From positions 77,280 through 141,279 of the IMG/VR virus record IMGVR_UViG_3300037487_000968: a stretch of 64,000 nucleotides of DNA. The stretch is one strand, 5' to 3'. This document shows, in pieces, positions 20,679 to 52,162 of the stretch; within the stretch, counting starts at the first letter, position 1; every line of letters starts with the position of its first letter. The position numbers and the translations under genes were made by a program. The DNA is from a virus (taxonomy: Duplodnaviria; Heunggongvirae; Uroviricota; Caudoviricetes). The notes below the pieces were generated by a model. The model was given only the letters and a program-made list of their open reading frames with translations, did not search any database and was not told where the DNA came from.

Positions 20679-20682
20679 AAAA

Positions 20683-20788
20683 TCATATCTAAACGCACTC
20701 GCATCTCCCTTTGGGGGCGCGTGTTCACCAACTTTTTATCCTGCGTCCAGGAAGTTGTGTGCCCATTTACACCAGCGTTTAGATATGA
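20683..20788 (-). ncRNA. Candidate cloverleaf-like structured RNA closed by a 14-bp stem
   Basis: TCATATCTAAACGC / GCGTTTAGATATGA enclosing three hairpins. Confidence 0.5.
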
Positions 20789-20911
20789 CCCCATGCGTCG
20801 GGACTTCTTACAGACAGGATATACAATACTAATCTCGTAACTAGCGCAGACATTACTTATGTAGTTGCTAGATTAAGATTAGCCTTTTTTTGGCTAATTT
20901 AAGCAGCTACT

Positions 20912-43143: not shown

Positions 43144-43351
43144 TACAATCCTATTGTTCGTATAATGTATTTATTATAACAAGAAAAAGTCTATCTGTCA
43201 ACAGTTATTTGAAAATAGCCACGTAAGGGAAGGACTCCGTATTAGGGCACCTTACTGCTATTCGTCGAGGTTTTTCTAACCAAGGCACTCACGACTAATC
43301 CTTGTTGTGGATGTCCCATCCTGGGAGGCCCACACAGCCATCGAAAACCTA

Positions 43352-43453
43352 GTTTGATTAGTGCTCTTATCTGCCTGCCTGCACTCTCCGGATGGATAGC
43401 GTCGACCCGTATACGGAACTCGCCCGACTTCAGTCTAGAGGCACTAATCAAAC
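43352..43453 (-). ncRNA. Candidate structured RNA closed by a 13-bp stem
   Basis: GTTTGATTAGTGC / GCACTAATCAAAC. Confidence 0.4.
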
Positions 43454-43475
43454 AAGGCTCCCTTGAGCCTTGTTT
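43450..43475 (-). terminator. Hairpin terminator after the 43487 gene
   Basis: AAACAAGGCTC-4nt-GAGCCTTGTTT. Confidence 0.65.
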
Positions 43476-44647: not shown

Positions 44648-44862
44648 GGTGAGCTGGGAAGGATTCGAACCCCCAACGATAACCATTCCTTATTGCACGT
44701 TCGGATTCCTGTATAGCGGAGTGGTCCTTAACCCCGACTTCGTATCATATGGGACCAACCATATTTAACTACTGCCCTATTCTCCGTGCAAGTTTGAATG
44801 ATCCTGTTTTACCACGCTCCAGGGCCTTTGTTCCTTTTTGCGTCTTGTTAAACTAACAGCTC
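44648..44862 (-). ncRNA. 215-nt tRNA-scaffold RNA with D-loop insertion and a large pseudoknotted insert in place of the anticodon loop (tmRNA-like topology)
   Basis: GAGCUG/CAGCUC-ACC acceptor, GUUU/AAAC D stem, GGGGG-UUCGAAU-CCUUC T arm; TTGACA(44893-98)-17-TATACT(44870-75) places +1 near G1. Confidence 0.7.
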
Positions 44863-44911
44863 AAGTCATAGTATAGTGCCAAATCACTATACTGTCAACG
44901 AGTATTTAGTC

Positions 44912-47681: not shown

Positions 47682-50063
47682 TCAGTTTGGTCTACCGTTT
47701 TGTTCAACATATTCTTTGGCGTATCGAAGATGGCTGAACTCGGCAAATTTGAAATCTTCACCAACTCGCGTCCATGAATACCATTTGTCGGGAATCATTT
47801 CTCGTTTACCTGCCCAGATCTTTCTTCGGTACTCTCTGCGAATTTCTCCGCAGAGTTTTCCGTTTCGGAGAACATATAGTCCTGCCGCAGATTTCTGGTA
47901 TGAAATCATTTTCCTAGACAGTTTCTACTTCTTTAGAAGCATAGAAGGCAGCGATTTTCGTCTTCAAGTCTTCCACCAGCGTGAGTGCGTGGTTGTGTTG
48001 CTCTTCGACTTTCTTGCCCGTGCATTTGGTAGGTGCTGAATACACCATACGCTCAGAGAAGTCCTGATACATCACATAGCTGAAGAACGCACCCTCATCC
48101 TTACCGACGATTGCCGATGTGATTAGCTGGCCACTGCTCACCTTGTGGGTACTGATTTCGAGACTTCGACCGTTTGGCAGATTGAACTTGCTCTCTGCCT
48201 TCCAGTTGCCACGAATGTCTTTGCGGATAAGAGTCATGACGGGATCTCCATTTTGGTAAGTTCGTGAAAGCATTCATCCCCTTCAAGTGTAATCTCGTCA
48301 AAAGGGATTTCGTATTCTTCATACGAATCTTCATCGTGGCAATGAAGCATGCCTTCATCCATATCACAAAAGTCCATACGCAGCCACTTGCCGGATGGGT
48401 CTACATAGAAGCACGCCTTTTCAGCCATGTCAGCGATTTGATCGACAGTTGGTTTAGCCATTTCATTCCTTTGTTTGTTGCGATGTGTTTATTATACGGC
48501 CAAACAGGAGCCTTGTCAATATTAACTTGGAAAGAAGGTTGCAGGACCTATTCCGTATTTTTTACGAAATTCGAACCTATCGTAAGGCCCTTTCAGGCGT
48601 TGAATCATATATGCAGACTTCAGTTCGTCGTTTAGAAACAGTGCTGTGGCTCTGCTACATTGTGGTGAATTCTTCTCGTTCGGTATGTATTGGTGTCCGG
48701 AAGCGTATGGATAATTCGCATGCCATACTTCAACGCCATCAACCTTGGATGCACAGTAACCAACCACTATCTCAGTACCTTGCTCAAGTGAGCCCCAAAG
48801 CCATTTATCCCACTCTTCATCATACGGATACATCCGCGTCCAACAGAGTGGATTGAATATAGCCTTCAGCGTATATTTCAGCTTGAGTAGCTTCACGATC
48901 TAAATCACCAAATACGGATGACCAGGGTCCAATACATCGTTGGCGGCACCGTCAGCAAAACAACACGGATAGTCGTTAACCAGCGGGTAGTATTCGTCTA
49001 CCCCCGACACATACACTGTCACATTCTCTTCCAGTTGTTCTGGAGTCAAATCCTTCAGCATCTCAATCAATTCACGATAGGTAAGTGACATATCAGCCCT
49101 TAGTTGTTTGCGATGTGTGTATTATAGCAAGGAATCACTTCCTTGTCAATACTAATCTCCAGAATCAATCTGGTAAGTATCGCCGCAGTGGTCGCAAACA
49201 TATTCGTGGAGGCAGTTGCGAATAGTTTGTCCTTTGTAGGAATGGGTACAGCCCACGCCATTGCGGTTGATACCTACATATCCTTTTGGTTCGCCAAACA
49301 TATATTGGCCACCACAGTTGTTACAGCTAAGAGTATCATCTGACGCACGATATCCGGCGATAACATTGGCATATCGTCGCATATCATCGGGGATAGGCCT
49401 ACGCCCTGTTCCATTACAGATAGGACACAAACATTTACCTTCGGGTATCACCAGTTTTGTTTCCATTTCAACTCCTTGCGGCTTTAAGAATACGAGCAAC
49501 TGAATTGTCAGCAATGTCGGACCAATCCTTAGGCATAATAATACGCTCAGGCAGTTTAACACCGGGCGGGAAGTTCCAAACATTGGAGAAGTGATCCTCC
49601 ACCAGATCTGATACTTCGGACATCATCGAATACAGTGCGTCGGCAATATAGCTGCGACCATCCTTCCACGCACGATAGGAATCGCACGAGCGATAGTTGC
49701 AGCGAACAGGCATCCTATCCAGTGCTCGGGACAATTCGCCGTCTGTATCAAACGGATGGAATGTATCTGTTTCGAACAATTGGATTTTGAAATATTCTGT
49801 ATATCCTTCACTTACCTTTTTGGTATCGAGTGTTGAATATAGTTTCATATTGGCAAGAATAATCTTGCGAAACTCCGCCACTACAGCAGGCCAATTGTAT
49901 TTCATTTTGAATGCTCTCGTGCGTTATCAATTACATCTTGAACAAGTTGATCGAATTGCTCTTCTGTGAATTCGCTATCAACTTCAACAGCATCATCAAA
50001 CTCTCGCAGTGCCTTGATAAATTCGCGTGCCGCTTTGTTTAGTTTCTCTACATGCTCTTCCAT
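47682..50063 (-). other. Hypothetical CDSs: 47682-47909, 47914-48237, 48234-48461, 48522-48896, 48900-49091, 49152-49466 (CxxCxGxG zinc-binding), 49468-49905, 49902-50063
   Basis: ORFs with corrected starts. Confidence 0.65.
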
Positions 50064-50075
50064 CGTAATCCTTGG

Positions 50076-50171
50076 TGGTGGAGTAGATAAGATAAGACTA
50101 CCTGCCATGGAGCACACCGGTACGTCAGTGTGCTTAGGACTCGAACCTTTTAGCCTTATCTTATCTACTCC
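50076..50171 (-). ncRNA. 96-nt circularly permuted tRNA mimic (YrlA-like topology) on a 21-bp terminal stem ending in ACCA
   Basis: GGAGUAGAUAAGAUAAGGCUA / UAGUCUUAUCUUAUCUACUCC-ACCA; interior AGG-UUCGAGU-CCU, closed 9-bp stem, CC-AUGGCA-GG; sits directly behind a cassette promoter. Confidence 0.7.
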
Positions 50172-50219
50172 TTGTTGCGATGTGACTATTATAACAAGGT
50201 TCTTAGGCCTTGTAAACAA

Positions 50220-50849
50220 TTAAACGAAAAGAAAGTTTTTAGATAGAAACTTGAGCACTTTGTTGTAGCCGTGCTCTTTAATTAGTTCCCCGATCAACTT
50301 GTCAGCTTCAGGAGCTTCGGCGCACGTGGTCAATCGGTCTGCATCGATGCACATTTCAATGGCACATTCGTTGTCGTCGACCATGCAATCTGAACCAATA
50401 TAGTTCCACACAAGCCACATCGGGTGCCTTAACTGATCTACTACTGCTTTGTCTAACTGCATATCTACTCCTTGTTGCGATGTGACTATTATAGCAACAA
50501 GGAGCGAGTCTGTCAACTACTTTGTTTCATATTCCTTGATAAGCATTTTCAGCCACTTGTGGCGATGCGCTTGCATCCGGTCAAAGGTAAGATCTGTCGA
50601 AGGGATACCTTTCTTCAGAAGCCACGACTCCAATGTTTCACAACCTTCCAGTCGCTTGTGGATTGCAGTCCTGGCCCGCATCGCCGCATCTGTGTACATG
50701 AATCTTCCTTTACCTGGATTGCCGTCCTCAATAGCATGGCAGATGAATTCATTCATAAACCAGCGACTGGTATAATCTTTGCCACTACCTTTTGCCAGCC
50801 GTTCAACAGCCTTACGCATCGCCTTGGCAATTTTCAAACGTGAAGTCAT
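50220..50849 (-). other. Hypothetical cassette CDSs 50220-50462 and 50517-50849
   Basis: Starts corrected; 50517 resembles 39333 (ends HKWLKMLIKEY vs KAWMRSLIEEF). Confidence 0.68.
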
Positions 50850-51884: not shown

Positions 51885-52162
51885 CACTTCATTTTATTCA
51901 TTAATCGAAATATCTATTCTATTAGGTATCTTATTAAATAACCTATATTTAATAAGATAGAAATATATTTAATTCATACATGCGTGAGCACATACGATCA
52001 CAGGTGTTTAGGCCCGGATTTCGCACTTCATTTTATTCATTAATCGAAATATCTATTCTATTAGGTATCTTATTAAATATGGGTTATTTAATAAGATAGA
52101 AATATATTTAATTCATACATGCGTGAGCACATACGATCACAGGTGTTTAGGCCCGGATTTCG
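51885..52162. repeat. 139-bp tandem duplication, each copy with a 13-7-13 palindrome whose spacer is inverted between copies
   Basis: TATCTTATTAAAT-AACCTAT-ATTTAATAAGATA (51927-59) vs TATCTTATTAAAT-ATGGGTT-ATTTAATAAGATA (52066-98). Confidence 0.9.

Follow-up and report, generated by a model that had tools for sequence, protein, structure and literature searches.

What is the RNA encoded on the minus strand at positions 50076-50171 of the window (the whole 64,000-nucleotide stretch of phage DNA analyzed here), in which 92 folded nucleotides are followed by ACCA? An earlier reading, made from the sequence without database searches, had taken it for an RNA expressed from a cassette promoter in place of an open reading frame (ORF), with a circularly permuted tRNA elbow on a 21-bp stem that itself ends like a tRNA, and had offered as possible roles a decoy for tRNA-targeting toxins, a partner of Ro60 or a chargeable minihelix. 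The IMG/VR virus record to which the window belongs is 210 kb long and an estimated 55% complete, has a G+C content of 40% and carries four tRNA genes; DNA of this record is present in freshwater, lake and sediment metagenomes (12 studies). The phage carrying the element is large, uncultured and of freshwater origin, and represents one lineage of jumbo phages.

The element as leader of a small operon

The features of the locus are given below in the order of transcription.

50188..50216, minus strand: cassette promoter TTTACA-17-TATAAT with TG extension (11 of 12 matches; identical in relatives)
50172..50187, minus strand: conserved cassette leader (..CACATCGCAACAA) 5' of the stem, with the probable transcript start inside (approximately 24 leader copies in the genome)
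50151..50171, minus strand: 5' arm of the 21-bp stem (the handle), whose first four bases, GGAG, are the cassette Shine-Dalgarno sequence, sequestered by the stem (seven compensatory stem pairs)
50136..50148, minus strand: T-arm-like hairpin AGG UUCGAGU CCU (stem invariant in 7 of 7 sequences; loop variable only at tRNA positions 57 and 59)
50111..50134, minus strand: closed acceptor-like hairpin with variable loop, 9 bp here and 6 to 8 bp in other copies (five compensatory pairs and an invariant U-G)
50101..50110, minus strand: D-like mini-arm CC AUGGCA GG (GGC of the loop invariant, AUG not)
50080..50100, minus strand: 3' arm of the handle (fold and covariation)
50064..50079, minus strand: single-stranded spacer ACCACCAAGGAUUACG, holding the ACCA and the working Shine-Dalgarno sequence AAGGA (50069-50073) of the next ORF (counterparts GCAACUAAGGAAG in contig L018 and ACAACAAAGGAAG in contig L085)
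49902..50063, minus strand: 53-aa ORF (MEEHVEKL..), cotranscribed with the element, with its own AAGGA Shine-Dalgarno sequence
49468..49905, minus strand: 145-aa gene, the start of which overlaps the stop of the 53-aa ORF (ATGA); directly 3' of the element in alleles C and D

A standard cassette promoter (TTTACA-17-TATAAT with TG extension) does precede the element, as had been read from the sequence, and approximately 24 copies of the leader CATCGCAACAAGGAG behind it are found on this genome strand. In every other copy this leader is followed by an ATG at a distance of 3 to 10 nt, the element copy being the sole exception. The view that the RNA takes the place of an ORF did not hold, as the 53-aa ORF with its own AAGGA begins 16 nt past the stem, and no terminator was found between the element and this ORF at the window locus. 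Because the 53-aa ORF and then the 145-aa gene follow without a terminator, the element is the 5' leader of a small operon. The proposed identity of the 5' arm with the cassette Shine-Dalgarno sequence applies to most copies but not to that in L085, which is without a promoter and reads GGAA. None of the neighboring proteins matched Pfam or another known family; a homologue of a phrog_8421-like small gene is located just upstream in the lineage of the window, in L018 and in L090.

The source gene call extends the downstream ORF to a 68-aa protein (P0035, 49902-50108) that starts from the AUG inside the D-like loop, and the 53-aa form (P0036) is found in at least 15 other contigs. A mini-ORF or N-terminal extension from this AUG was ruled out, since other copies read ACG, AAG or UUG, and the 68-aa call is probably a misannotation caused by the RNA. 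The locus would thus be a case of gene callers extending a neighboring ORF into an RNA.

In two metatranscriptome runs, contigs were found only over 50253-50500, which holds an 80-aa gene, and are uninformative on expression of the element. Identical 36-nt promoter/leader copies (window 50462-50497 and 50162-50197; also L013:1742-1777) flank this 80-aa gene.

Fold of the window copy

The minus strand of 50076-50171 matches letter for letter the element quoted earlier and folds so that a 21-bp stem closes a three-way junction, in which AGG/UUCGAGU/CCU is followed by a hairpin of 9 bp (loop of 6 nt) and by CC/AUGGCA/GG. Its folding energy is -48 kcal/mol, compared to -22.4 +/- 3.0 kcal/mol for dinucleotide shuffles (z = -8.5), and none of 200 shuffles folded as well. 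The fold also bore out that the sole irregular stem pair is a G-U, which is an A-C on the opposite strand. A riboswitch or thermosensor was ruled out because the perfect 21-bp closing stem is not switchable, and an intrinsic terminator was ruled out because a U tract is absent 3' of the stem. A likeness of 3 + 9 = 12 bp to the acceptor plus T stack of a tRNA was dropped, since the total varies among copies (4+7, 4+6).

Close alleles and exchange of cassettes

Contigs of relatives, reached via the 145-aa protein and by pattern scans, brought the number of nearly identical alleles to four, of which allele A is the window copy; a search via the flanking 53-aa ORF returned alleles A and B only. 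Allele B is without the upstream 80-aa gene, a loss that we attribute to recombination between the two identical 36-nt leaders, that is, to gain and loss of cassettes at the leader. Alleles C and D are without the 53-aa ORF, the stem being followed by UAAUAUAUC and the AUG of the 145-aa gene, with no Shine-Dalgarno sequence near this start. Alleles A, C and D share 99 to 100% identity over the entire block (promoter, 80-aa gene, promoter, element), compared to 80 to 91% in the genes on either side; conservation among these three alleles was therefore rejected as a sign of selection and ascribed to recent mosaic exchange of the block.

Allele B differs from allele A at 9 of the 92 element positions, compared to 1.5% over 2.8 kb of flanking sequence. 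Eight of the nine differences lie inside 27 nt, clustered in the acceptor-like hairpin, where pairing is kept (G-C to A-U, C-G to U-G, with an altered loop). The T arm and the 3' arm are unchanged, and in the handle the G-U pair is replaced by A-U.

Divergent copies, covariation and strand

A covariance model (R1) built from the four alleles detected three divergent copies elsewhere, with scores of 54.7 to 57.7 bits and E values down to 7e-12. The copy at L018:2488-2582 has promoter and leader upstream and an unrelated 51-aa ORF downstream; that at L090:721-815 has a promoter upstream and is directly followed by a 143-aa homologue of the 145-aa gene; that at L085:1645-1739 lies 5 nt past the stop of a 70-aa gene, is without a promoter and has a 108-aa gene downstream. 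These copies fold at z scores of -6.2 to -7.9. Across all copies the handle measures 20 to 22 bp (19 to 22 paired positions) and the element 92 to 95 nt.

The alignment (A5) comprises seven distinct sequences fitted to the model, which fall into two clades and hence represent few independent compensatory events. Standard pairs occupy 94.3% of its cells, and 12 of the 35 pairs (7 in the handle, 5 in the acceptor-like hairpin) changed on both sides, compared to 31 to 42% paired cells and 0 to 2 double-changed pairs in controls in which the 3' partners were slid by 1 to 3 columns. None of 500 shuffles matched the alignment in pairing percentage or covariation score, and RNAalifold arrived independently at these four helices, 11 pairs being compensated. 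The T stem (3 to 4 bp) and the D-like stem (2 bp) are invariant and without covariation.

A second model (R2) scored 87 to 109 bits on the sense strand versus 26 to 39 bits on the antisense strand. A single U-G pair is the same in all sequences, several G-U pairs vary among copies, and every copy is located on the coding strand. As judged from these sequences, the structure belongs to the sense strand. There is one copy per genome (three phage records), and the element occurs in five gene contexts, not all of which include a promoter, in each case sense-oriented, 9 to 17 nt 5' of a start codon and without a terminator after it.

Near and distant blastn searches of GenBank phages gave no match. 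Scans with exact core and arm patterns returned only the contig already found in the JGI metagenomes, nothing in GTDB genomes and, in IMG/VR, two close relatives and chance matches (a coding region in L029 and ordinary tRNAs). Separately, a 219-kb IMG/VR contig of another jumbo phage carries in a noncoding stretch (L044:4318-4371), with a tRNA-Glu gene approximately 1.2 kb away, a small T-arm hairpin, GAGG UUCGAUU CCUC, framed by UAGAUAAGU/ACUUAUCUA. Its 5' part equals the allele D arm over 14 nt; it scored only 11.8 bits with R1, was not counted as a member and may be a degenerate relative or a chance match.

A proposed tRNA-like elbow on a possible processing stem

The T-loop reads UUCGAGU, UUCAAAU or UUCGAAU within an AGG/CCU closing stem that is invariant in all seven sequences. 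U54, U55, C56, A58 and the closing G-C are fixed, and variation is confined to positions 57 (a purine) and 59, as in tRNAs. In sequence, the arm thus has what characterizes a tRNA T arm (G53-C61; U54 U55 C56 R57 A58 N59 Y60; a GG partner loop), and in the D-like loop GGC is invariant, preceded by AU, AC, AA or UU. The pattern GGTTCRANTCC occurs six times in the 210-kb record, all on this strand, namely, in the four tRNAs, in a 215-nt tRNA-scaffold RNA and in the element; its chance expectation inside the element core is approximately 6e-5. Neither ARAGORN nor the Rfam tRNA model (RF00005) found a cloverleaf with anticodon arm at the element.

The order of T arm, closed acceptor-like stem and D-like loop that the sequence-only reading had likened to bacterial YrlA RNAs stood up to covariation in the seven distinct sequences. 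The folded model is connected like a tRNA with an open anticodon loop and a sealed acceptor end. Since the T and D-like stems do not covary, we infer the elbow from sequence conservation alone.

The element is not a separate gene ending in ACCA. The reading that we prefer, at a probability of roughly 0.4, is that of a conserved 92- to 95-nt sense-strand RNA module that early operons of small genes carry in the 5' leader or between cistrons, with an elbow under selection and a handle that is a likely RNase III substrate. Docking of the T-loop with the GG loop would give the tRNA-like elbow, the D-like arm being stacked on the handle and the T arm on the acceptor-like hairpin; this elbow would be the selected part, read by an elbow-recognizing factor. 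Candidate readers are RNase P, TruB, TrmA, the CCA-adding enzyme, a ribosomal site and a phage or defense protein.

A perfect handle of at least 20 bp is a likely substrate for host RNase III, and the 19 to 22 paired positions in all copies correspond to the length of regular duplex that this enzyme takes (approximately two turns, at least 20 bp). Cleavage of the handle would free a discrete RNA of approximately 70 nt and would put the new 5' end of the mRNA just before the unpaired Shine-Dalgarno sequence of the next gene. The module moves between cassettes, recombining at the leader that these have in common. Several further RNA modules of the same genome are likewise framed by long stems, which fits a theme of processing. 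Genes for RNase III, the CCA-adding enzyme, RtcB and Ro60 were not found in the 55%-complete record.

Among the points against the elbow reading are that many RNAs use T-loops simply to hold a tertiary fold, and that an RNase III cut would separate the 145-aa gene of alleles C and D from its only recognizable Shine-Dalgarno sequence. A more far-reaching proposal, which we consider unlikely, is that of a new phage family of tRNA-elbow mimics without Ro60, presented on a double-stranded handle of conserved sequence, excised from early leaders by host RNases and titrating or recruiting, early in infection, a host factor that reads the elbow, such as RNase P, a T-loop modification enzyme, the ribosomal tRNA site or a tRNA-directed defense protein.

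Alternative explanations

The main rival to an elbow mimic is a purely cis-acting leader structure, in which a rigid hairpin module beside the ribosome-binding site would insulate or stabilize the mRNA and control how the following gene is translated, with contact between T-loop and GG loop doing no more than compacting the junction; we regard it as doubtful, if serious. It accounts for the position of the copies, all sense-oriented, 9 to 17 nt 5' of a start codon and not followed by a terminator, but genes in these phages are dense and run in one direction, so any intergenic element would lie near a start codon. In four of six contexts (alleles A and B, L018 and L085), a leader-like CAACNAAGGA on the 3' side supplies the next gene with a free Shine-Dalgarno sequence, a point in favor of this rival. 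However, the downstream genes differ by context (53-aa, 51-aa, 108-aa and 143/145-aa), so that no single regulated gene goes with the element. Moreover, a plain hairpin would suffice, leaving the tRNA-patterned T-loop and the invariant GGC unexplained.

As part of the cis-acting explanation, the handle in alleles C and D, and perhaps in L090, may bridge a split ribosome-binding site, bringing the leader AAGGAG to approximately 9 to 11 nt from the AUG. Only UAAUAUAUC lies ahead of the 145-aa gene in alleles C and D, and an RNase III cut would deprive the gene there of its sole Shine-Dalgarno sequence; in more distant relatives, this gene has such a sequence nearby or is translationally coupled. 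Hairpin-bridged split sites are established for genes 38 and 25 of phage T4 (PMC3014915), but the 92-nt insert is far above the 22 and 27 nt between Shine-Dalgarno sequence and AUG in those precedents. By its sequence geometry, a split site fits alleles C and D only.

It is improbable that the element is a selfish or neutral palindromic insertion, either MITE-like or the relic of a tRNA gene fragment, with no RNA function. The element is absent 5' of the orthologous genes in more distant relatives (L018, L019, L022, L024 and L027), a presence/absence polymorphism that an insertion would produce; its removal from the window restores a normal "type-2" leader, as in L018, and its ends are 21-bp inverted sequences. 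The top of the 5' arm together with the T arm resembles parts of phage tRNA-Arg(UCU) and tRNA-Ile(GAU) genes, which is a lead only. The sequence-only reading had itself raised a MITE-like insertion with target duplication and an unconserved T-loop as the case to look for, but no target-site duplication was found at the junctions, there is one copy per genome, and the T-loop is conserved in a tRNA-like pattern. IMG/VR, the JGI metagenome scan and GTDB genomes yielded no further locus with these arms or cores. Compensatory changes in the internal hairpin would be needless for a transposase or a DNA palindrome, and G-U pairs are tolerated on the sense strand only.

Regarding the resemblance to tRNA genes, the pattern TAAGNTAAGG-N5-AGGTTCRANTCCT also matches many phage tRNA-Arg(UCU) and tRNA-Ile(GAU) genes (IMG/VR loci L041-L084), the match covering the 3' strand of the anticodon stem, the variable loop and the T arm; the pattern was taken from the element, and the match is without significance. 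The module may be derived from a tRNA gene.

A YrlA-type Y RNA, the handle of which is bound by the Ro60/Rsr ring while the tRNA-like domain recruits a partner enzyme, is very improbable. YrlA (RF02553) is a Y RNA of bacteria and mycobacteriophages, with a tRNA-like domain in the order V/T/AS/D in which the T arm, a closed acceptor-like stem and the D arm sit on a terminal stem (Chen et al. 2014, PMC4201824). The element has the same order of T, closed acceptor-like and D-like parts, and its 7-bp acceptor-like stem in L090 and L085 recalls the Mycobacterium smegmatis YrlA, which is opened by RNase P (PMC4201824). Yet a cmscan of the window locus, L090 and L085 with 4227 Rfam families, YrlA included, returned only microRNA and lncRNA noise at E <= 10, so that the suggested YrlA membership found no backing in Infernal. 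A known ribozyme, tmRNA or other catalogued RNA family was ruled out by the same lack of an Rfam match at E <= 10. The Ro-binding motif GNCGAAN0-1G is absent from the 5' arms of all seven sequences, and the perfectly paired helix is unbulged. The Ro60 partnership fared no better in the genomes: no TROVE domain was detected, even at E <= 1, in the 210-kb record, of which the unsequenced part or the host may hold Ro60, or in the partial records of two relatives (101 kb and 70 kb). The neighboring genes are without any Pfam family.

A double tRNA mimic, in which the terminal stem is an acceptor-like minihelix with discriminator and CCA that is charged or acts as a toxin decoy, has next to no probability: the ACCA right after the stem in alleles A and B, which prompted the idea, is replaced elsewhere by UAAU (C and D), GCAA (L018), ACAA (L085) or AGAU (L090), it lies within a continuing mRNA that runs on into ORFs, 6 nt 5' of the Shine-Dalgarno sequence of the next ORF, nothing in the sequence makes a 3' end there, and a 21-bp helix is not an acceptor/T-arm stack. 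The ACCA is thus present in the window, as had been stated, but not conserved. Being nonconserved and part of the CAACNAAGGA spacer, it is a local accident of the spacer before the next Shine-Dalgarno sequence, and the chargeable minihelix falls with it. The anticodon loop and the CCA end are the two best-known target sites of tRNA-targeting toxins; the element has neither an anticodon loop nor a conserved free CCA end, so both of these sites are missing.

Other structured RNAs in the window

At 44648-44870 (minus strand), a consensus promoter, TTGACA-17-TATACT, drives a noncoding RNA of approximately 215 nt that has at its 3' end a T arm, GGGGGTTCGAATCCTTCC, and after it CAGCTCACCG. This 3' end resembles that of a tRNA or tmRNA, and pairing of a 5' GAGCUG with CAGCUC is conceivable; the RNA was called neither by ARAGORN nor by Rfam. 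A near-threshold match to the Rfam family Proteo-phage-1 is located at 43260-43340 (minus strand; 39.5 bits versus a gathering threshold of 42; E = 4.5e-5) and hints at a proteobacterial host. Directly upstream of this motif, at 43340-43465 (minus strand), lies a structure of approximately 110 nt with a 13+8-bp closing stem (z = -4.1 versus -2.4 on the other strand). At 20679-20792 (minus strand), a 114-nt structure with a 17-bp closing stem (z = -5.9) is found immediately 5' of tRNA-Tyr, with which it is probably cotranscribed. The region 51885-52162 contains two direct copies of approximately 139 bp, each with a palindrome TATCTTATTAAATA..TATTTAATAAGATA, the central spacer being inverted between the copies. 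Membership of the element in one family with a 19-bp framing stem just past the end of the window was ruled out, as the stem sequences are unrelated.

Significance and comparison with known systems

To our knowledge, Y RNAs bound to Ro60 are the only catalogued permuted tRNA mimics. By its sequence, the module matches no catalogued RNA family and has a YrlA-like topology without the defining features of Y RNAs. If a conserved mimic is indeed carried inside mRNA leaders without a Ro-binding site or Ro60 gene, phages would use the tRNA elbow as a stand-alone handle for another partner. The RNA is compact (92 nt) and experimentally tractable, with the T-loop, the GG loop and the handle as clear mutational targets. 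As the locus also illustrates, a "CCA tail" known from one genome can arise by accident, through the ribosome-binding site of the next gene.

In T4 genes 38 and 25, split ribosome-binding sites are bridged by hairpins (PMC3014915, reviewing Nivinskas et al. 1999; Malys and Nivinskas 2009). Alleles C and D likewise have their sole Shine-Dalgarno sequence 5' and their AUG 3' of a stable structure, and folding would reduce the gap to approximately 9 to 11 nt. They differ from the T4 sites in the size of the insert (92 versus 22 to 27 nt) and in a Shine-Dalgarno sequence that is partly paired, and a second, unpaired Shine-Dalgarno sequence is present in the other alleles (A and B) as well as in L018 and L085.

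The intercistronic sites of phage T7 and the stems of rRNA operons are RNase III processing stems, and the T7 sites carry internal loops. As in these systems, the flanks of a folded module form a long duplex, which at 20 bp or more suits RNase III and is placed between genes or in leader RNA. Unlike the element, the T7 sites have internal loops and are without a tRNA-like top; cleavage of the element is a prediction.

The stable RNAs C and D of T4 are small structured phage RNAs with tRNA parts. The element shares with them, and with tRNA-framed phage small RNAs, a structured fold in which parts of a tRNA are borrowed, but those RNAs are located in tRNA arrays and have tRNA ends for RNase P and 3' processing, whereas in the element, which is part of an mRNA leader, the tRNA ends are sealed.

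Compared to YrlA, the element is without a variable arm and has a shorter T stem (3 to 4 bp) and D stem (2 bp), its handle is a perfect, unbulged 20- to 22-bp duplex with the conserved center AUAAGNUAAGG, and it resides inside mRNA leaders rather than in a free-standing gene. Both are circularly permuted tRNA-like modules on a terminal stem formed by the two ends of the RNA, both have a T-loop of the tRNA consensus and a D-like arm with GG, and YrlA, too, is known from phages as well as bacteria.
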